This document shows, piece after piece, positions 3,411 to 34,128 of a DNA stretch of 64,000 nt. The position numbers were made by a program, and so were the translations under genes. This stretch comes from TPA_inf: Saccharomyces (taxonomy: Eukaryota): NCBI GenBank assembly GCA_000146045.2, contig BK006948.2, positions 320,001 to 384,000 on the forward strand, written 5' to 3'. Below the pieces are notes generated by a model. That model was not told the origin of the DNA. It ran no database searches and worked only from the letters and a program-made list of their open reading frames with translations. Each line of letters begins with the position of its first letter. Within the stretch, counting starts at the first letter, position 1.

Positions 3411-4364
3411 CTAGGAGACAATCCCGTTCTCCATCTTTATATGGACTAACTCATAACTATTTAATAAACCTCTCAAGTGGCACAATGCCGCAATAACAAC
3501 TAGAAAATGGAAAAGTTGGTGAGAATGACCCCAAATATCAAATTTACCGGGGCAAATCTTTTCAGGAAACCGCATTCCATAAAGAACAGCGCCAATTATA
3601 TATAGGACACCCCCAAGTAATACCCAAAAGAGCTGAATTTGGGTCCAAATTTCTGAAAAACTATAGCAGTAAAGGCCGCTGAATATTGGAATAATTGAGG
3701 ATAAACCAAAACAAACAAATAGCCCAGCTCTGTAAGGTCTCCACTCTCTTTTCCGAAACTTATCTTTTAGTGACACAATACTACACGCGATCCCAAAGCT
3801 AACGGTAATAAGCGCAAATAGGCAAAATAGGGAAAATTTCTCAAAATAGCCGTAGTACAAAATACTGACCATTGACGTAACAATCAATATACAAATACCA
3901 AGGTAGTCCAACTTATTTCCTAAGGTAGCAATTCTTAAGGAGTGACTCTTTAGACAATGAAAGGAGCTACTCAATATTAAACATGCAAACGCCCCCGAAT
4001 AAAAGAGGTCGATTACCATATGATCTAGCCATGTAGTTGTTGCAAACACTTTGATAGTAGATTTATCTAGCAACAGTACAGTGAAGAACCCGAGAGCAGG
4101 AATTAAATGTGAATAAATATTGACACTTTCATTATGCAAATAAAACAAACTTTTAAAAGTTTCAATGAAGCTACTAGTTTCTTTCACGTATCCATGTAAA
4201 ATAAAATCATTGTCTCTTTGCCATTCCGGAATTTCATCCCAACTATATAGCCTTCTTAGTACTTTTTTAGCTTTAGCGACCTCTGCGGGATTTGCGGATG
4301 TTTTCCCTGCAGCTCTCTTCTTCAGCTCTTGCACACTCTTAGTCCTTTCTAATAAAGTTGACAT
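3411..4364 (-). CDS. IZH2: PAQR-family (adiponectin-receptor-like) membrane protein, 317 aa
   Basis: The track ORF 3411..4394 has a non-ATG start; the first ATG at 4362-4364 gives 317 aa (MSTLLERTKS...). It has 7 TM segments and the HxxxH / PAQR motifs (HSHQLFH). Confidence 0.85.
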   Translation of the reverse strand: MSTLLERTKSVQELKKRAAGKTSANPAEVAKAKKVLRRLYSWDEIPEWQRDNDFILHGYVKETSSFIETFKSLFYLHNESVNIYSHLIPALGFFTVLLLDKSTIKVFATTTWLDHMVIDLFYSGAFACLILSSSFHCLKSHSLRIATLGNKLDYLGICILIVTSMVSILYYGYFEKFSLFCLFALITVSFGIACSIVSLKDKFRKREWRPYRAGLFVCFGLSSIIPIFSGLYCYSFSEIWTQIQLFWVLLGGVLYIIGAVLYGMRFPEKICPGKFDIWGHSHQLFHFLVVIAALCHLRGLLNSYELVHIKMENGIVS

Positions 4365-5248
4365 TTGGAATGATTCTTCTCCAACATGCAGCATAATTAA
4401 AACGACGGGAAATTTAGTACATTTGGCTCAAGGAACGCTGACATAAATACTATTTCTAATCTACTATTCGAAGAGATGTTGGATTTCTAAAAAAAAAAGA
4501 GCTCAACAACGGAAGACCGCCTATTAACCCCGAGTGTCTGTTTTTTAGTATACTCGAAGCAAACAAGAAAAGTTTGTTACTTAATTTCTGGCCTAAACAA
4601 GGTAGTGCTACCCTAGAGGAAGTACGATATCAGTACACTTTTGTATTTTTAACGAATTATGGTATTCTTTAAAATATTTAACATGCTATCGAGTTTTTCT
4701 TTCTAAAATGCGGTTTCAAAATTTGAGTCCGCTTTCTATGGAAAATATGAATGAGGCGAACGTGCTTGTACCATAGTCAGATTTTAACCCGTAGGTGAGA
4801 GCCTGAGGCTTCTGTAAACCACCTTGGAAACACATACGGGTTATAAGATTTTAACAAACAATCAGTCTCCATACTCATCCTAGGATCTCTTCTTCATTTG
4901 ATGAATAAAGGATTCAAACTTCAGAAAGTTATTCAGCGTATATTGGCTTTCCTTTAATCTAATGCCCCAAGCCATCATAAATAGCCATATTACTTTGAAA
5001 GTGCTCATCCGTATACACTGCAACTTTTCTTCTTTTCTCTTTAGCCGATTATAGCTCCTACCTGTTTTTTTTTTCTTCTTAAGATTATTTATATTCCAAT
5101 TTTATCATCCGTATTGTTTCCAATAGCGTTCCAGTGATCAGTTATATACTTCGAGAGGCAGATAACCTTTCTTTTTATAAGTGTTTATCAAATTTAAGTC
5201 TGCAAGCTATCATAAGACGAGGATATCCTTTGGAGACTCATAGAAATC

Positions 5249-6130
5249 ATGGAAAGCACATCAGGAGAACGTTCCGAAAATATACATGAGGATCAAGGGA
5301 TACCAAAAGTAATTCTGCCCGCTGATTTTAATAAATGCTCTAGAACTGACCTAGTGGTGCTCATATCACGAATGTTAGTATCGCTGATAGCAATCAATGA
5401 AAATTCAGCAACAAAGAAATCTGATGACCAAATTACTTTAACACGATACCATTCTAAGATTCCTCCAAACATATCAATCTTCAACTATTTCATACGACTG
5501 ACAAAGTTTTCCTCTTTAGAACATTGTGTGCTTATGACATCACTCTATTATATCGATTTATTGCAAACTGTGTATCCTGATTTTACGCTTAATTCGTTGA
5601 CTGCCCATAGGTTTTTATTAACAGCCACCACAGTCGCAACAAAAGGCTTATGTGATTCGTTCTCAACAAACGCCCATTATGCAAAAGTTGGAGGAGTACG
5701 ATGTCACGAATTGAATATACTGGAGAACGATTTTTTAAAGAGAGTAAACTACAGAATCATTCCGCGGGATCATAACATTACGTTATGTAGTATAGAGCAA
5801 AAACAGAAAAAGTTTGTCATAGATAAAAACGCATTAGGGTCTCTCGATTTGGATTCTTATTCTTACGTTAATCGTCCAAAAAGTGGATATAATGTTCTAG
5901 ATAAATACTATCGAAGAATAGTTCAGCTGGTGGGTTCCTTTAACGCTTCACCTGATAAGAGTAGAAAGGTTGATTATGTTCTCCCGCCAAATATTGATAT
6001 AGTGAGTGAAAGTGGCTCCCAAACTACTCAACTAAAGGGGTCGTCATCACCCAATTCTCACTCTTCACAAAAGCGATATTCTGAGGCAAAGGACGCACAT
6101 ATCTATAACAAGCGATCAAAGCCAGATTAA
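5249..6130 (+). CDS. PHO80: Pho85 cyclin (phosphate-pathway regulator), 293 aa
   Basis: ATG at 5249. Cyclin box and the whole 293-aa sequence recognised as Pho80. Confidence 0.9.
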   Translation: MESTSGERSENIHEDQGIPKVILPADFNKCSRTDLVVLISRMLVSLIAINENSATKKSDDQITLTRYHSKIPPNISIFNYFIRLTKFSSLEHCVLMTSLYYIDLLQTVYPDFTLNSLTAHRFLLTATTVATKGLCDSFSTNAHYAKVGGVRCHELNILENDFLKRVNYRIIPRDHNITLCSIEQKQKKFVIDKNALGSLDLDSYSYVNRPKSGYNVLDKYYRRIVQLVGSFNASPDKSRKVDYVLPPNIDIVSESGSQTTQLKGSSSPNSHSSQKRYSEAKDAHIYNKRSKPD

Positions 6131-6195: not shown

Positions 6196-6221
<26 letters not shown>

Positions 6222-6230: not shown

Positions 6231-6585
6231 TATAATAAGCAATTGGCCATCATTTGGCTAAAAAGTTCAAGATTTCAGGTAGTATATAAGAGAATAACTT
6301 CCCTCTTTTGCTAAAGAAGGATATGTTCTATTTCAGCCTTTTTGCATCATAAGAGCATAAGCGACAGAAAACACTTCGAGATGAGCTTGAGAACTCCATT
6401 TCAATTAACTTGATAAATACATGTAGATTCATATCATCACTGTTCTTTTCAGATACTAGTTTCAAAACTTCCTTGACAGAACCATTTCATGTTCAATAAT
6501 GAAAATTACTTTCACATGTTTTAGTGGAAAAATACTGAACAATGAAATTTCAATATCGCATATAATAATTTTTGTTATCAAATAT

Positions 6586-6702
6586 ATATTTTTCGGAAGT
6601 CATATACATTAAATAATTAAAACATTATTTTTAAAAATTAAAAAAATATATTTTAGCAAATAGTTTTTACTTTTTTTTAAATGCAAAATAAGTTCACGTG
6701 AT
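6586..6702 (-). other. CEN15: Point centromere CEN15: CDEIII (6586-6609), CDEII (6610-6694, about 85 bp and >90% A+T), CDEI (6695-6702), oriented on the minus strand
   Basis: The minus strand reads ATCACGTG (CDEI, RTCACRTG) at 6702-6695. It is followed by an ~85-bp stretch that is almost pure A+T. Then comes aaTGTATATGACTTCCGAAAAATAT, which matches the CDEIII consensus TGTTTATGNTTTCCGAAANNNAAAAA with the invariant CCG. It lies between PHO80 and RRP6, as known for CEN15. Confidence 0.85.
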
Positions 6703-6741
6703 ATTATTAATAATATTTTACCCAAAAATATGAGGGCATCG

Positions 6742-6751
6742 GAAAATTTTT
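6742..6751 (+). promoter_or_regulatory. RRPE-like element (GAAAATTTTT) in the RRP6 promoter, about 80 bp upstream of the ATG and about 40 bp from CDEI
   Basis: The motif ggaaaatttttc is read directly. RRPE (AAAAATTTT) is typical of ribosome-biogenesis promoters, and RRP6 is a ribosome-biogenesis/exosome gene. Confidence 0.5.
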
Positions 6752-6831
6752 CAGTAATGAATATTAATGTTCATCTGAAGATAGACGAAATAGGAACAAC
6801 AAACAGCTTATAAGCACCCAATAAGTGCGTT

Positions 6832-9033
6832 ATGACTTCTGAAAATCCGGATGTACTTTTATCTAGGGTGATAAATGTGGTGAGAGCAGCATCATCGTTA
6901 GCCAGTCAAGATGTAGACTTTTACAAGAATTTAGACAGGGGATTTAGTAAAGATCTGAAATCAAAAGCAGACAAACTTGCGGATATGGCGAATGAAATAA
7001 TCCTCTCTATTGATGAGCATCATGAATCATTTGAACTTAAAGAAGAGGACATTTCTGACTTGTGGAACAACTTTGGAAACATCATGGATAATTTGTTAGA
7101 AATGTCAGACCATTCGCTGGATAAGCTGAATTGTGCAATAAACTCAAAGTCAAGAGGTTCCGATCTTCAGTATTTAGGCGAATTTTCAGGAAAGAATTTT
7201 TCTCCCACCAAAAGAGTCGAAAAACCTCAGTTGAAATTTAAAAGTCCAATTGATAACAGCGAAAGTCATCCGTTCATACCTTTATTGAAGGAAAAACCAA
7301 ATGCTTTGAAGCCACTCTCTGAGAGTTTGAGGTTGGTTGATGATGATGAAAATAACCCCAGTCACTACCCCCATCCTTATGAATATGAGATTGATCATCA
7401 AGAGTATAGTCCAGAAATTCTCCAAATTAGAGAGGAGATTCCCTCAAAATCCTGGGATGATTCGGTACCAATTTGGGTAGATACAAGTACAGAACTCGAA
7501 TCAATGTTGGAGGACTTGAAAAATACGAAAGAGATTGCCGTTGATCTTGAGCATCACGATTATAGGTCATACTATGGTATTGTTTGCCTCATGCAAATTA
7601 GTACAAGGGAAAGGGATTATTTAGTTGATACTCTAAAACTTCGCGAAAATTTACATATTCTGAACGAAGTGTTTACGAACCCTTCAATTGTGAAAGTTTT
7701 TCACGGTGCATTCATGGATATTATTTGGCTTCAGCGAGATTTAGGTTTGTATGTCGTTGGTCTCTTCGATACTTACCATGCGTCTAAAGCAATCGGTCTT
7801 CCTAGACATAGTTTGGCCTATCTTTTGGAGAATTTTGCCAATTTTAAAACTTCAAAGAAATATCAGTTGGCTGACTGGCGTATAAGACCGCTTTCAAAAC
7901 CCATGACGGCATATGCTAGAGCAGATACTCACTTTTTACTAAATATATATGACCAGTTGAGAAACAAACTTATCGAGTCTAATAAGTTAGCAGGTGTTCT
8001 TTATGAATCAAGAAATGTCGCAAAAAGAAGGTTTGAATATTCAAAGTACAGACCACTGACACCTTCTTCAGAAGTTTATTCTCCAATCGAAAAAGAGAGT
8101 CCTTGGAAAATATTGATGTATCAGTACAACATACCACCTGAGAGGGAAGTATTAGTAAGAGAGCTATACCAATGGAGAGATCTTATTGCAAGAAGAGACG
8201 ATGAATCGCCACGATTTGTTATGCCAAACCAGTTATTGGCTGCACTTGTCGCATATACACCTACTGATGTCATAGGTGTTGTTTCTTTGACCAATGGCGT
8301 AACTGAACATGTCCGCCAGAATGCAAAACTATTAGCTAATTTGATAAGAGATGCATTACGAAACATCAAGAACACCAATGAGGAAGCTACTCCCATTCCA
8401 TCTTCCGAGACCAAAGCAGACGGAATATTGTTGGAGACTATAAGTGTTCCTCAAATCCGTGATGTTATGGAAAGGTTTTCGGTGTTGTGCAACAGCAATA
8501 TTTCCAAGAGCCGAGCCAAGCCTGTCACTAATTCTTCTATTCTGTTGGGTAAGATTTTACCACGTGAGGAGCATGATATTGCATATAGCAAAGACGGCTT
8601 GCCAAATAAAGTGAAGACGGAAGATATCAGGATCCGAGCACAAAATTTCAAGTCTGCCTTAGCAAACTTGGAGGATATCATATTCGAAATAGAGAAACCT
8701 CTCGTTGTTCCTGTCAAGCTAGAGGAGATTAAGACAGTAGACCCTGCGAGCGCACCTAATCACTCGCCTGAGATTGATAATCTTGATGATCTTGTTGTTT
8801 TAAAGAAGAAAAACATTCAAAAGAAACAACCAGCAAAGGAAAAAGGTGTAACGGAAAAAGATGCTGTGGATTATTCAAAAATTCCGAATATCTTATCTAA
8901 TAAGCCTGGCCAAAATAATAGACAACAAAAGAAAAGGAGATTCGACCCATCATCTAGCGATAGTAATGGACCAAGGGCAGCTAAAAAGAGGAGGCCTGCC
9001 GCCAAAGGTAAGAATCTGTCATTTAAAAGGTGA
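6832..9033 (+). CDS. RRP6: Nuclear exosome 3'-5' exoribonuclease (RNase D family: DEDDy exonuclease plus HRDC domain), 733 aa
   Basis: ATG at 6832. Exonuclease motifs (VDLEHHDYRSYYG...) and a lysine-rich C-terminal NLS. The 733-aa length matches Rrp6. Confidence 0.9.
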   Translation: MTSENPDVLLSRVINVVRAASSLASQDVDFYKNLDRGFSKDLKSKADKLADMANEIILSIDEHHESFELKEEDISDLWNNFGNIMDNLLEMSDHSLDKLNCAINSKSRGSDLQYLGEFSGKNFSPTKRVEKPQLKFKSPIDNSESHPFIPLLKEKPNALKPLSESLRLVDDDENNPSHYPHPYEYEIDHQEYSPEILQIREEIPSKSWDDSVPIWVDTSTELESMLEDLKNTKEIAVDLEHHDYRSYYGIVCLMQISTRERDYLVDTLKLRENLHILNEVFTNPSIVKVFHGAFMDIIWLQRDLGLYVVGLFDTYHASKAIGLPRHSLAYLLENFANFKTSKKYQLADWRIRPLSKPMTAYARADTHFLLNIYDQLRNKLIESNKLAGVLYESRNVAKRRFEYSKYRPLTPSSEVYSPIEKESPWKILMYQYNIPPEREVLVRELYQWRDLIARRDDESPRFVMPNQLLAALVAYTPTDVIGVVSLTNGVTEHVRQNAKLLANLIRDALRNIKNTNEEATPIPSSETKADGILLETISVPQIRDVMERFSVLCNSNISKSRAKPVTNSSILLGKILPREEHDIAYSKDGLPNKVKTEDIRIRAQNFKSALANLEDIIFEIEKPLVVPVKLEEIKTVDPASAPNHSPEIDNLDDLVVLKKKNIQKKQPAKEKGVTEKDAVDYSKIPNILSNKPGQNNRQQKKRRFDPSSSDSNGPRAAKKRRPAAKGKNLSFKR

Positions 9034-9416
9034 TTATGTAAAACAAGCGTATTTTTTTATTTATAAATTATGGTAATTTTCATTTAAGACCTCTAAATTC
9101 ATCTAATCGAATATCTGTGTCATGGAGTTATGGCTCCCCCATGCACACCATTTTCTCTTTTTTTGTTTCTGTGTTTCCCTTCATCTCCTTTATTATGAAA
9201 AGTACAAGTTTTATATAATTTCAACGTCGGAGGTTATCCGGAAATCTATAGTTGAATTTTTGCAGGATTATACTTCGCTCGAATATTGTGCGTGTTAAAT
9301 ACTCAGCGAGAACAATACTTCCAAGTTAGAAAAGGGATTTGCTCATGTTAAAGCAATGGCACTCCGAATGGACGGTGTCAGGAATTCTTTTCTTCACATC
9401 AGGCTTCGCATAGAAA

Positions 9417-11051
9417 ATGGCCATTGGCAAAAGGTTACTGGTGAACAAACCAGCAGAAGAATCATTTTATGCTTCTCCAATGTATGATTTTTTGTATCCG
9501 TTTAGGCCAGTGGGGAACCAATGGCTGCCAGAATATATTATCTTTGTATGTGCTGTAATACTGAGGTGCACAATTGGACTTGGTCCATATTCTGGGAAAG
9601 GCAGTCCACCGCTGTACGGCGATTTTGAGGCTCAGAGACATTGGATGGAAATTACGCAACATTTACCGCTTTCTAAGTGGTACTGGTATGATTTGCAATA
9701 CTGGGGATTGGACTATCCACCATTAACAGCATTTCATTCGTACCTTCTGGGCCTAATTGGATCTTTTTTCAATCCATCTTGGTTTGCACTAGAAAAGTCA
9801 CGTGGCTTTGAATCCCCCGATAATGGCCTGAAAACATATATGCGTTCTACTGTCATCATTAGCGACATATTGTTTTACTTTCCTGCAGTAATATACTTTA
9901 CTAAGTGGCTTGGTAGATATCGAAACCAGTCGCCCATAGGACAATCTATTGCGGCATCAGCGATTTTGTTCCAACCTTCATTAATGCTCATTGACCATGG
10001 GCACTTTCAATATAATTCAGTCATGCTTGGCCTTACTGCTTATGCCATAAATAACTTATTAGATGAGTATTATGCTATGGCGGCCGTTTGTTTTGTCCTA
10101 TCCATTTGTTTTAAACAAATGGCATTGTATTATGCACCGATTTTTTTTGCTTATCTATTAAGTCGATCATTGCTGTTCCCCAAATTTAACATAGCTAGAT
10201 TGACGGTTATTGCGTTTGCAACACTCGCAACTTTTGCTATAATATTTGCGCCATTATATTTCTTGGGAGGAGGATTAAAGAATATTCACCAATGTATTCA
10301 CAGGATATTCCCTTTTGCCAGGGGCATCTTCGAAGACAAGGTTGCTAACTTCTGGTGCGTTACGAACGTGTTTGTAAAATACAAGGAAAGATTCACTATA
10401 CAACAACTCCAGCTATATTCATTGATTGCCACCGTGATTGGTTTCTTACCAGCCATGATAATGACATTACTTCATCCCAAAAAGCATCTTCTCCCATACG
10501 TGTTAATCGCATGTTCGATGTCCTTTTTTCTTTTTAGCTTTCAAGTACATGAGAAAACTATCCTCATCCCACTTTTGCCTATTACACTACTCTACTCCTC
10601 TACTGATTGGAATGTTCTATCTCTTGTAAGTTGGATAAACAATGTGGCTTTGTTTACGCTATGGCCTTTGTTGAAAAAGGACGGTCTTCATTTACAGTAT
10701 GCCGTATCTTTCTTACTAAGCAATTGGCTGATTGGAAATTTCAGTTTTATTACACCAAGGTTCTTGCCAAAATCTTTAACTCCTGGCCCTTCTATCAGCA
10801 GCATCAATAGCGACTATAGAAGAAGAAGCTTACTGCCATATAATGTGGTTTGGAAAAGTTTTATCATAGGAACGTATATTGCTATGGGCTTTTATCATTT
10901 CTTAGATCAATTTGTAGCACCTCCATCGAAATATCCAGACTTGTGGGTGTTGTTGAACTGTGCTGTTGGGTTCATTTGCTTTAGCATATTTTGGCTATGG
11001 TCTTATTACAAGATATTCACTTCCGGTAGCAAATCCATGAAGGACTTGTAG
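9417..11051 (+). CDS. ALG6: Dol-P-Glc:Man9GlcNAc2-PP-Dol alpha-1,3-glucosyltransferase (ER, multi-TM), 544 aa
   Basis: ATG at 9417. Polytopic membrane protein with the ALG6/ALG8 family signature; 544 aa matches Alg6. Confidence 0.9.
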   Translation: MAIGKRLLVNKPAEESFYASPMYDFLYPFRPVGNQWLPEYIIFVCAVILRCTIGLGPYSGKGSPPLYGDFEAQRHWMEITQHLPLSKWYWYDLQYWGLDYPPLTAFHSYLLGLIGSFFNPSWFALEKSRGFESPDNGLKTYMRSTVIISDILFYFPAVIYFTKWLGRYRNQSPIGQSIAASAILFQPSLMLIDHGHFQYNSVMLGLTAYAINNLLDEYYAMAAVCFVLSICFKQMALYYAPIFFAYLLSRSLLFPKFNIARLTVIAFATLATFAIIFAPLYFLGGGLKNIHQCIHRIFPFARGIFEDKVANFWCVTNVFVKYKERFTIQQLQLYSLIATVIGFLPAMIMTLLHPKKHLLPYVLIACSMSFFLFSFQVHEKTILIPLLPITLLYSSTDWNVLSLVSWINNVALFTLWPLLKKDGLHLQYAVSFLLSNWLIGNFSFITPRFLPKSLTPGPSISSINSDYRRRSLLPYNVVWKSFIIGTYIAMGFYHFLDQFVAPPSKYPDLWVLLNCAVGFICFSIFWLWSYYKIFTSGSKSMKDL

Positions 11052-20298: not shown

Positions 20299-20371
20299 CT
20301 TCCCCGCCAGGACTTGAACCTGGAATCTTCTGGTTCGTAGCCAGACGCCGTGACCATTGGGCCACGAGGAA
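20299..20371 (-). tRNA. tR(ACG): tRNA-Arg, anticodon ACG, 73 nt, no intron
   Basis: The minus strand reads TTCCTCGTGGCCCAATGGTCACGGCGTCTGGCTACGAACCAGAAGATTCCAGGTTCAAGTCCTGGCGGGGAAG. Cloverleaf folds by hand: anticodon stem TCTGG/CCAGA, loop CTACGAA. T-loop is GGTTCAAGTCC. Confidence 0.9.
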
Positions 20372-24334: not shown

Positions 24335-25798
24335 ATGGCTTACTCTAAAATCACATTACTAGCCGCTCTTGCTGCTATTGCTTACGCTCAAACCCAAGCA
24401 CAAATCAACGAATTGAACGTTGTTTTAGATGATGTTAAGACCAACATTGCCGACTACATCACCCTATCCTACACTCCAAATTCAGGTTTTTCCTTGGACC
24501 AAATGCCAGCTGGTATTATGGATATTGCTGCGCAATTGGTTGCAAATCCAAGTGATGACTCCTACACCACTTTGTACTCTGAAGTGGACTTTTCTGCTGT
24601 TGAGCATATGTTGACTATGGTCCCATGGTACTCTTCTAGACTGCTTCCAGAATTAGAAGCAATGGATGCTTCTCTAACTACCTCAAGTTCTGCTGCCACA
24701 TCTTCAAGTGAAGTTGCTAGCTCTTCTATTGCTTCATCCACTAGCTCTTCTGTTGCACCATCCTCAAGTGAAGTTGTCAGCTCTTCCGTTGCACCATCCT
24801 CAAGTGAAGTTGTCAGCTCTTCCGTTGCACCATCCTCAAGTGAAGTTGTCAGCTCTTCCGTTGCTTCATCCTCAAGTGAAGTTGCCAGCTCCTCTGTTGC
24901 GCCATCCTCAAGTGAAGTTGTCAGCTCTTCCGTTGCTTCATCCTCAAGTGAAGTTGCCAGCTCCTCTGTTGCGCCATCCTCAAGTGAAGTTGTCAGCTCT
25001 TCCGTTGCACCATCCTCAAGTGAAGTTGTCAGCTCTTCCGTTGCTTCATCCTCAAGTGAAGTTGCCAGCTCCTCTGTTGCGCCATCCTCAAGTGAAGTTG
25101 TCAGCTCTTCCGTTGCTTCTTCTACAAGCGAAGCTACTAGTTCTTCTGCTGTCACATCTTCCTCCGCTGTTTCCTCTTCGACCGAGTCTGTTAGCTCTTC
25201 CTCTGTCAGTTCTTCCTCAGCCGTTTCCTCTTCTGAAGCTGTCAGTTCCTCTCCAGTTTCCTCAGTTGTTTCATCTTCGGCCGGACCTGCTAGCTCAAGC
25301 GTTGCTCCTTACAACTCAACCATTGCTAGCTCTTCTTCCACTGCCCAGACTTCTATCTCGACCATTGCTCCTTACAACTCCACAACCACCACCACCCCAG
25401 CTAGTTCTGCTTCCAGCGTTATTATCTCAACCAGAAACGGTACCACTGTTACTGAAACTGACAACACTCTTGTCACCAAAGAAACCACTGTCTGTGACTA
25501 CTCTTCAACATCTGCCGTTCCAGCTTCCACCACCGGTTACAACAATTCTACTAAGGTTTCAACCGCTACTATCTGCAGTACATGCAAAGAAGGTACCTCT
25601 ACTGCAACTGACTTCTCTACACTAAAGACTACAGTTACCGTATGTGACTCCGCCTGTCAAGCTAAGAAGTCTGCTACCGTTGTTAGCGTTCAATCTAAAA
25701 CTACCGGTATCGTTGAACAAACCGAAAACGGTGCTGCCAAGGCTGTTATCGGTATGGGTGCCGGTGCTTTAGCTGCTGTTGCCGCCATGCTACTATGA
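24335..25798 (+). CDS. TIR4: Srp1/Tip1-family (seripauperin-like) GPI cell-wall mannoprotein induced under anaerobiosis/cold, 487 aa
   Basis: ATG at 24335. Signal peptide, conserved N-terminal Tip1 domain (...YTTLYSEVDFSAV..MLTMVPWYSSRL..), long Ser-rich repeat region and a GPI-type hydrophobic C-terminus. 487 aa. Confidence 0.85.
   Translation: MAYSKITLLAALAAIAYAQTQAQINELNVVLDDVKTNIADYITLSYTPNSGFSLDQMPAGIMDIAAQLVANPSDDSYTTLYSEVDFSAVEHMLTMVPWYSSRLLPELEAMDASLTTSSSAATSSSEVASSSIASSTSSSVAPSSSEVVSSSVAPSSSEVVSSSVAPSSSEVVSSSVASSSSEVASSSVAPSSSEVVSSSVASSSSEVASSSVAPSSSEVVSSSVAPSSSEVVSSSVASSSSEVASSSVAPSSSEVVSSSVASSTSEATSSSAVTSSSAVSSSTESVSSSSVSSSSAVSSSEAVSSSPVSSVVSSSAGPASSSVAPYNSTIASSSSTAQTSISTIAPYNSTTTTTPASSASSVIISTRNGTTVTETDNTLVTKETTVCDYSSTSAVPASTTGYNNSTKVSTATICSTCKEGTSTATDFSTLKTTVTVCDSACQAKKSATVVSVQSKTTGIVEQTENGAAKAVIGMGAGALAAVAAMLL
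24725..25130. repeat. Coding minisatellite: about 10 near-identical tandem copies of a 36-bp unit (tcctcaagtgaagttgtcagctcttccgttgcacca, encoding PSSSEVVSSSVA) within TIR4
   Basis: Read directly. Units differ only by gca/gct or cca/tca and gtc/gcc substitutions. Confidence 0.9.
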
Positions 25799-26194: not shown

Positions 26195-26950
26195 TTATAA
26201 TAACATGGCGGCAGCGGCCATGACACCAGCACCCATACCGATGACAGCCTTGGCAGCACCGTTTTCAGTTTGTTCGGAAACAGTGCTAGTGGCTTGAACT
26301 TGACCATCACTGATTTGAGAAATGGCGGAGGCTTTGGTGGAAGAAGCAACAGCTGAAGAAACAGCAGAGGAAGAAGCCTTAGTGGAAGAGGCAGCCTTGG
26401 TAGAGGAAGCGACGGTGGAAGAGGTAGCCTCACTGGAAGAAGCGACAGCAGAAGAAGTAGCAGCAGAAGAAGAAGCTTCACTGGAAGAAGCGACGGCAGA
26501 AGAAGTAGCTTCACTGGAGGAAGCGACGGCAGAAGAAGTAGTTTCACTGGAGGAAGCAACAGCGGAAGAAGTAGCAGCAGAAGAAGCTTCAGTAGAAGAG
26601 GCAGCGGTGGTAGAAGTTCCTAACAAGGATTCCAATTCTGGTAGAAGCCTGGAAGAATACCATGGAACCATGGTCAACATCTTGCTAACAGCAGCAAAGT
26701 CAACCTCAGAGTACAAAGTAGTGTAGGAGTCATCAGTGGCGGAAGCCAAAGCTAAACCGATGTCTAAAACACCAGATGGCAGACTGCTTAAGGAAAATCC
26801 AGATGAAGAATCTTCAGCCAAACTAATATATTCTTGCAAGTTGGACTTAACGTCATTCAAAATAACGTTCAATTCGTCAATTTCTTCCTGAGTTTGGGCA
26901 GAAGCCAAAGCAGCGATAGCAGCTAATAAAGCGATCTTGATGTAAGCCAT
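26195..26950 (-). CDS. TIR2: Srp1/Tip1-family GPI cell-wall mannoprotein (anaerobic/cold-shock induced), 251 aa
   Basis: ATG at 26948-26950 (minus strand). The N-terminal domain is paralogous to TIR4 (MAYIKIALLAAIAALASAQTQEEIDELNV...). Ser/Ala-rich repeats and a GPI-like C-terminus. 251 aa. Confidence 0.85.
   Translation of the reverse strand: MAYIKIALLAAIAALASAQTQEEIDELNVILNDVKSNLQEYISLAEDSSSGFSLSSLPSGVLDIGLALASATDDSYTTLYSEVDFAAVSKMLTMVPWYSSRLLPELESLLGTSTTAASSTEASSAATSSAVASSSETTSSAVASSSEATSSAVASSSEASSSAATSSAVASSSEATSSTVASSTKAASSTKASSSAVSSAVASSTKASAISQISDGQVQATSTVSEQTENGAAKAVIGMGAGVMAAAAMLL
26340..26620. repeat. Degenerate 36-bp-type Ser/Ala-rich coding repeats inside TIR2 (SSAVASSSEATS-like units)
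   Basis: Repetitive gaagaagtagc / ggaagaagcgacggcagaagaagtag units on the plus strand. These produce the spurious same-locus antisense ORFs in the track. Confidence 0.6.
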
Positions 26951-34032: not shown

Positions 34033-34040
34033 ACAAAAAA
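34033..34040 (-). terminator. Pol III terminator T-run (T6 on the tRNA strand), 3' of tRNA-Thr
   Basis: The plus strand reads gacaaaaaa immediately after the tRNA 3' end. Confidence 0.7.
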
Positions 34041-34113
34041 TGCTTCCAATCGGATTTGAACCGATGATCTCCACATTACTAGTGTGGCGCCTTACCAACT
34101 TGGCCATAGAAGC
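34041..34113 (-). tRNA. tT(AGU): tRNA-Thr, anticodon AGU, 73 nt, no intron
   Basis: The minus strand reads GCTTCTATGGCCAAGTTGGTAAGGCGCCACACTAGTAATGTGGAGATCATCGGTTCAAATCCGATTGGAAGCA. Anticodon stem CCACA/TGTGG, loop CTAGTAA. T-loop is GGTTCAAATCC. Confidence 0.9.
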
Positions 34114-34128
34114 AGTAAACCGTTATTT

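Follow-up and report, generated by a model that had tools for sequence, protein, structure and literature searches.

The locus described here lies in a 64,000-nucleotide stretch of Saccharomyces cerevisiae DNA, below called the window, which corresponds to sacCer3 chrXV:320,001-384,000; positions are counted from its first letter and differ from the chromosome coordinates by an offset of 320,000. It contains a point centromere between a PHO80-type cyclin gene and RRP6, and the centromere stands next to the RRP6 promoter (Table 1). The original prediction, made from the letters of the window, had described a complete centromere in minus orientation, consisting of the centromere DNA elements (CDEs) CDEI, CDEII and CDEIII, and had named it CEN15 and the following open reading frame (ORF) RRP6. 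Both names are right. The ORF at 6832-9033 encodes the domains of Rrp6, and its product is 99% identical to the S. cerevisiae protein. The gene is YOR001W, a systematic name that itself denotes ORF number one on the right-hand side of the chromosome XV centromere. The element at 6584-6702 is CEN15 in minus orientation, the point centromere that functions on chromosome XV of S. cerevisiae. Three published CEN15 capture probes match the window exactly and with the constant offset of 320,000, so that probes and coordinates both identify a functionally characterised centromere; according to Gordon et al. (2011), functional characterisation exists for every centromere of S. cerevisiae.

Table 1. 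Features of the CEN15-RRP6 locus and its surroundings, with the Reb1 sites of three orthologous RRP6 promoters in the last rows.
Feature	Position	Strand	Remarks
HlyIII-family gene	3411-4394	-	protein domains
PHO80-type cyclin gene	5249-6130	+	cyclin domain; transcribed toward CDEIII
CEN15 probes	chrXV:326456-326574, 326579-326698, 326706-326825	-	published probe table
CEN15 (whole)	6584-6702	-	chrXV:326,584-326,702; annotated point centromere
CDEIII, TGTATATGACTTCCGAAAAATATAT	6584-6608	-	CBF3-binding element; faces PHO80; essential CCG
CDEII	6609-6694	-	86 bp, 90.7% A+T; DNA wrapping the single Cse4 nucleosome
CDEI, ATCACGTG	6695-6702	-	Cbf1 site; faces RRP6
Spacer, CDEI to regulatory block	6703-6728		fast-evolving; 1/26 positions invariant
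Conserved RRP6 promoter block	6729-6754	-	16/26 positions invariant
GGGCATCG, PAC-like CGATG core	6734-6741	-	directly adjoins RRPE
RRPE, TGAAAAATTTT	6743-6753	-	exact 11/11 match to the consensus TGAAAAWTTTY
RRP6 core promoter and 5' leader	6755-6831	+	upstream ATGs; no usable TATA box
RRP6 coding sequence	6832-9033	+	PMC2NT, DNA_pol_A_exo1 (3'-5' exonuclease) and HRDC domains; direction of transcription away from CEN15
Alg6 gene	9417-11051	+	protein domains
tRNA-Arg(ACG)	20299-20371	-	ARAGORN and Rfam agree
tRNA-Thr(AGT)	34040-34114	-	ARAGORN and Rfam agree
Reb1 site, E. gossypii	L011:2888		RRP6 promoter
Reb1 site, K. lactis	L012:2848		RRP6 promoter
Reb1 site, L. thermotolerans	L014:2889		RRP6 promoter

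All three elements have the form known from Saccharomyces-type point centromeres. CDEI is an 8-bp Cbf1 site of the form RTCACRTG. For CDEII, which had been predicted as about 85 bp of more than 90% A+T, the measured values given in Table 1 agree; it lies between the two other elements and contains eight A or T runs of at least 4 nucleotides. CDEIII, of about 25 bp, has a central CCG flanked by TG..TT and GAA, and this invariant CCG, also part of the prediction, is found at 6594-6596 (CGG on the plus strand). The predicted place of the centromere was thus correct, except that the start given for it, 6586, lies 2 bp inside the element, which begins at 6584. From the end of CDEI to the RRP6 ATG we measured 129 bp, where about 130 bp had been proposed, and from the PHO80 stop codon to CDEIII 453 bp.

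The support for the centromere call does not come from each element equally. The CDEI motif by itself is not significant, as it occurs at chance rate (four matches in the window against 5.5 expected), and a strict 26-nt CDEIII consensus gave no match in the window even when three mismatches were allowed. Both results would fit with a fortuitous CDE match at a site that is no centromere. However, the joined pattern TCACRTG-N70-95-TGNNTTCCGAA has a single occurrence in the window and did not turn up in any of 100 shuffles, and CDEII has the highest A+T content among all 63,915 86-mers of the window. The strict consensus failed because the CEN15 CDEIII differs at weakly conserved positions, and it was replaced by a weight matrix that was built from published sequences. 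For this matrix the 16 core-centromere sequences were taken from the probe table of Hedouin et al. (2022; PMC9371891), only the other 15 centromeres were used for training (leave-one-out), and both strands of the window, about 128,000 positions, were scanned. The CEN15 CDEIII at 6608 (minus strand) scored 24.0 bits, within the range of the training centromeres (21.6-28.1 bits) and 11 bits above any other site, the runner-up reaching 12.6 bits. Over all 16 centromeres CDEII measures 78-87 bp with 86-97.6% A+T. CEN15 falls within the range of the S. cerevisiae centromeres for both CDEII and CDEIII. Since in addition the coordinates are identical to those published for CEN15, and position and orientation are conserved in 11 of 12 species (see below), a chance resemblance is so improbable that it can be disregarded; the probe identity and the leave-one-out score refute it.

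Two further matches to centromere elements were noted. Another perfect CDEI/Cbf1-type site, GTCACGTG, is located at 9797-9804 within the ALG6 coding sequence and has neither CDEII nor CDEIII nearby. An inverted repeat of 14/15 positions between CDEIII (6590-6604, TATGACTTCCGAAAA) and the RRP6 start codon (6831-6845, TATGACTTCTGAAAA) was rejected as a chance match, as 55 of 200 shuffles gave an equal or better one. Among the CDEIII-like sites of the window the one at the start codon ranks fourth (8.7 bits), but in the other species it scores between -4.5 and 14.5 bits with an inconsistent CCG, and the inverted repeat is not conserved.

The orthologous loci were compared in 12 species, namely S. 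cerevisiae, six other Saccharomyces and five distant yeasts. In all of them the cyclin gene and RRP6 are adjacent, and in 11 the centromere lies between the two; the exception is K. lactis, in which no centromere was found in the orthologous interval. In the seven Saccharomyces the centromere always has the same orientation, with CDEI toward RRP6, and the gap from CDEI to the conserved ATG is 127 bp in S. paradoxus, 129 bp in S. cerevisiae, 135 bp in S. mikatae, 139 bp in both S. kudriavzevii and S. arboricola, and 147 bp in both S. uvarum and S. eubayanus. Among the distant yeasts, E. gossypii and N. bracarensis, with gaps of 318 bp and 360 bp, respectively, likewise have clear centromeres of this orientation, while Z. 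rouxii and L. thermotolerans show good CDEIII matches at the corresponding place, beside an AT-rich stretch. Where the gap was measured in distant species (Z. rouxii, E. gossypii and N. bracarensis), it amounts to 277-360 bp. The orientation of CEN15 and the pattern of presence and loss agree with the published map of the ancestral centromere Anc_CEN6 (Gordon et al., 2011, their Table 1), which gave rise to '13+' and '15-' in S. cerevisiae; its descendant is on chromosome 3 in each of Z. rouxii, A. gossypii and L. thermotolerans, whereas K. lactis has lost it.

Two apparent deviations within the genus turned out to be artefacts. S. mikatae at first seemed to lack the centromere, because its CDEI, CTCACGTG, has a C at the degenerate first position and was missed by the strict RTCACRTG search; the centromere is present, with a CDEII of 82 bp (L006:2752-2865). 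Gaps of only 93 bp in S. uvarum and S. eubayanus were calculated from annotated starts that lie 54 nt upstream of the conserved ATG. In these two species the Rrp6 annotations (745 and 747 aa, respectively) begin at an in-frame ATG (3001 instead of 3055 in loci L009 and L010), whereas another S. uvarum annotation (727 aa) begins at the conserved one. Among the seven Saccharomyces the upstream in-frame ATG is specific to these two.

Sequence conservation over the seven Saccharomyces is very uneven. Mean pairwise identity is 0.32 in the left flank, 0.81 in CDEIII, 0.47 in CDEII, 0.96 in CDEI, 0.35 in the spacer, 0.83 in the promoter block at 6729-6754 and 0.55 in the rest of the promoter. Invariant are 16 of 25 positions in CDEIII, 4 of 86 in CDEII and 7 of 8 in CDEI, whose CACGTGA core is the same in all seven species. 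Three constrained islands thus stand between fast-evolving DNA, and the conservation of CDEI and CDEIII by sequence and of CDEII by length and composition is the usual pattern of point centromeres. Five S. cerevisiae genomes are identical across 280 bp that comprise centromere and promoter, except for one A-run in CDEII, which is 1 bp shorter in the SRR6228822 assembly (equivalent to window 6640-6646).

Another reading is that RRP6, which encodes a nuclease of the nuclear exosome, has been kept beside the centromere by selection, through a feedback between centromere transcription and RRP6 expression. The adjacency is older than the whole-genome duplication, and centromeric RNAs (cenRNAs) have been reported to be degraded by TRAMP and the nuclear exosome. 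However, the paper on cenRNA degradation does not name Rrp6 itself, and gene order is generally conserved around all ancestral centromeres (Gordon et al., 2011), so that no special selection is needed. In K. lactis the centromere was lost and yet the PHO80-RRP6 neighbourhood and the promoter motifs are intact, and the sister centromere CEN13 has no copy of RRP6 beside it. We also know of no mechanism for such a feedback and consider a selected linkage very improbable.

The third constrained island belongs to RRP6. An RRPE-like motif, GAAAATTTTT, had been predicted between the centromere and the start codon, and an exact match to the ribosomal RNA processing element (RRPE) is indeed found there. 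The exact motif occurs only once in the window, but at least once in 38 of 100 shuffles; as it is not statistically rare alone, its support comes from conservation. It is exact in S. cerevisiae, S. paradoxus, S. mikatae and S. kudriavzevii, and the other three Saccharomyces, which have no exact RRPE, keep the aligned AAAAATTTTC core. Together with the adjoining GGGCATCG it forms the most conserved intergenic block outside the CDEs. The polymerase A and C (PAC) motif GCGATGAGMT, in contrast, is absent in its consensus form, as no GATGAG was found between CDEI and the ATG in any of the seven Saccharomyces; the conserved CGATG core beside the RRPE matches about 7 of 10 positions of the PAC consensus, as judged by eye. 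Of the distant species, N. bracarensis, K. lactis and Z. rouxii carry true PAC cores. The leader of RRP6 holds a further feature: between CDEI and the RRP6 start there are upstream ATGs at 6730, 6757 and 6767, all followed by stop codons. In transcripts that start near the centromere these would create short upstream ORFs, which suggests, as far as the sequence can tell, that the main transcription start site (TSS) lies downstream of about 6770.

The position of the block separates the promoter from the centromere. Relative to the ATG, 11 of the 12 species have an RRPE or PAC core between -89 and -125, and for ten of these the range narrows to -89 to -101; in N. bracarensis the RRPE is at -125, with PAC cores at -98 and -90, Z. 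rouxii has only a PAC core at -54, and K. lactis, which has no centromere, kept PAC cores at -100 and -95. Measured from CDEI, RRPE/PAC is about 30 to about 270 bp away, depending on the species. Within Saccharomyces this distance is about 30-50 bp, with 89-100 bp from the block to the ATG, and indels gather on the CDEI side of the block rather than on its ATG side. Since the distance is steady from the ATG and variable from CDEI, the regulatory block belongs to the gene and not to the centromere. Our analysis thus established the identity, anatomy and conservation of CEN15 and the independence of the centromere and promoter modules.

For the coexistence of kinetochore and RRP6 transcription, which the original prediction had regarded as a possible conflict, the directions of the genes have to be considered. 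RRP6 runs away from the CDEs, and it is PHO80 that points at the centromere, so that little of the implied conflict between RRP6 and the kinetochore is left to explain. We take the centromere and the promoter of RRP6 to be two separate modules that are adjacent by happenstance, the latter being a short, TATA-less promoter of the ribosome-biogenesis (RiBi) type with its block (RRPE and CGATG core) fixed about 90-100 bp upstream of the ATG. This block probably sits in the nucleosome-free linker that is seen beside every yeast kinetochore. At yeast centromeres in general the midpoints of the flanking nucleosomes lie about 200-250 bp from the midpoint of CDEII, and from this spacing we infer a linker at about 6703-6780 and a first phased nucleosome toward RRP6 at about 6852-6902, on top of the start codon. 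The RRP6 mRNA does not cross the CDEs, and oncoming polymerases, e.g., those transcribing antisense from inside RRP6, would be blocked by Cbf1 at CDEI together with the assembled kinetochore. On the other side, transcription of PHO80 would end in the 453-bp gap ahead of CDEIII. A (TA)12 microsatellite is located in this gap at 6197-6220, 67 bp past the PHO80 stop codon, and may be part of the terminator that halts PHO80 transcription before CDEIII.

The roadblock and the origins of the transcripts in this model are taken from the literature. Hedouin et al. (2022; PMC9371891) mapped full-length long-read transcripts around all 16 centromeres and showed that Cbf1 bound to CDEI acts as a roadblock, by which polymerase is prevented from entering the centromere except in S phase. 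According to row XV of their Table 1, RNAs that enter via CDEI start antisense in the neighbouring gene, which is RRP6, and those that enter via CDEIII originate in the adjacent nucleosome-depleted region, here the 3' end of PHO80. In their supplementary note, outward transcripts that start no more than 100 bp from CEN11, CEN15 and CEN16 are attributed to expression of the adjacent gene. At least some RRP6 transcripts therefore start at or before 6802, while the exact TSS given above is our own estimate. A Pol II promoter that abuts the kinetochore is thus present at 3 of the 16 S. cerevisiae centromeres.

With pre-initiation complexes that would need to assemble about 30-100 bp from CDEI, the kinetochore could also limit RRP6 expression sterically or make it dependent on the cell cycle, for instance if initiation increased during the short disassembly of the kinetochore in S phase. 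The enrichment of centromere-proximal divergent transcripts in S phase and in cbf1Δ cells (PMC9371891) would be in line with such an interference. In the same study, however, cenRNA levels did not correlate with the expression of neighbouring genes, neither in G1 nor in S phase. In addition, the gap of 127-147 bp has been maintained throughout the genus, and a fragment with RRP6 and CEN15 is functionally expressed from a plasmid. Interference is therefore an unlikely explanation, although less remote than a selected linkage.

This plasmid also comes close to the mitotic-stability test that had been proposed for the centromere. The insert used by Feigenbutz et al. (2013) corresponds to window 6374-9382, as deduced from the primers and a genomic EcoRI site, and includes all of CEN15. 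CEN6 was deleted from the vector to avoid two centromeres on the RRP6 plasmid, and the fragment served as the sole centromere of a low-copy centromeric plasmid. In effect the test has been done by others, as far as the use as sole centromere is concerned.

CEN15 identity, independent modules and coexistence by gene orientation and roadblock form, taken together, the best explanation of the locus, and we hold it with high confidence. Some points count against it or leave it less firm. No formal mitotic-stability figure is given by Feigenbutz et al. (2013), the binding of Cse4, CBF3 and Cbf1 to CEN15 has support from the literature only, and the published long reads provide only a bound for the RRP6 TSS (at or before 6802). 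Furthermore, independent modules alone do not explain that every Saccharomyces RRP6 promoter is without a conventional site for a general regulatory factor (GRF).

This last point leads to a variant in which the two modules share an element. RiBi promoters typically carry a site for Abf1, Reb1, Tbf1 or Rap1 about 25 bp upstream of their RRPE, as is the case in about 80% of the members. In all seven Saccharomyces we found no consensus for any of these four factors between CDEI and the RRP6 ATG, and CDEI is located upstream of the RRPE block at a distance of 30-50 bp. Just upstream of RRPE/PAC, a perfect Reb1 site, TTACCCGG, is present in the pre-duplication yeasts L. thermotolerans (-113), E. 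gossypii (-113) and K. lactis (-153). In these three species TTACCCG occurs a single time per 8.2-kb locus, with about 0.006 occurrences expected in that zone. In Saccharomyces, CDEI with Cbf1 or the nucleosome-free linker made by the kinetochore might therefore have replaced the lost Reb1 site in opening and insulating the promoter. The RRP6 promoter would at the same time have become shorter, and the centromere would be a working part of it. The CDEI-ATG gap, which measures 277-360 bp in the three distant species but 127-147 bp in Saccharomyces, is in line with this, and at CEN8 a Reb1 site partly substitutes for CDEI, so that the two factors are partly interchangeable (Hedouin et al., 2022; PMC9371891).

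However, the spacing from CDEI to the block drifts (30-49 bp) while that from the block to the ATG is fixed, which speaks against a spacing-dependent unit. A conserved GRF site is in any case missing from about 20% of RiBi promoters, and in N. bracarensis and Z. rouxii no consensus GRF site was found in the RRP6 promoter despite the long gaps. Deletion of CBF1 raises divergent transcripts on the CDEI side, so that Cbf1 looks repressive there (PMC9371891), and the sample comprises 12 species only. A TTACCCA at 6717-6723, at about -113 and with a 6/7 core match, was considered as a decayed Reb1 site but rejected, as it is present in S. cerevisiae only and is probably a chance match. Altogether we regard a replacement of Reb1 by CDEI as doubtful, though the least improbable of the alternatives to independent modules. 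If it were true, one 8-bp element would serve both chromosome segregation and the expression of a neighbouring gene, and, to judge from the sequences, a functional takeover of this kind could be a neat case of a centromere element reused as a promoter element.

The arrangement of CEN15 beside the RRP6 promoter is real, ancient, already annotated and published, and largely explained. The position of CEN15 next to the RRP6 promoter has already been published, and direct studies of the mechanism by which the two coexist cover all 16 centromeres. What the comparison adds is modest: the regulatory block is tied to the gene, and the ancestral Reb1 site is missing where CDEI took its place, the latter being one small new lead. 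For practical work it has to be considered that cloning of RRP6 with its own promoter brings along a working centromere, which makes a CEN vector dicentric, as was pointed out in 2013, and that any deletion or tagging at the 5' end of RRP6 happens within about 130 bp of CEN15. As one of three natural promoter-kinetochore junctions, with CEN11 and CEN16, CEN15 is also convenient for studying insulation.

Elsewhere in the window two ORFs contain repeats. A 36-bp tandem repeat of at least about 11 copies is located at 24671-25233 within the ORF 24335-25798, and repeats of 15/18 nt at 26340-26600 within the ORF 26195-26950 on the minus strand. Both ORFs look like genes for repeat-rich secreted or cell-wall proteins.

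Compared to known systems, the element in the window is identical base for base to the annotated S. cerevisiae CEN15, a descendant of Anc_CEN6. It shares its layout with the other 15 S. cerevisiae centromeres, which have CDEI, CDEII and CDEIII in the same order, a CDEII of 78-87 bp with at least 86% A+T and a CDEIII with TG..TTCCGAA. Within this range its CDEII is near the low end in A+T content, and its CDEIII differs from the centromere majority (TGTATATGAC against TGTTTTTGTT), with an ATATAT tail in place of the A-run. Like CEN11 and CEN16, it has transcripts of the neighbouring gene that start within 100 bp. With RiBi promoters the RRP6 promoter shares the conserved RRPE at about -90 and the short, TATA-less layout. 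The Saccharomyces RRP6 promoters differ from them, as they have neither a consensus PAC nor an Abf1, Reb1, Tbf1 or Rap1 site and carry CDEI in that position, whereas distant RRP6 orthologues have the full Reb1-RRPE/PAC layout.

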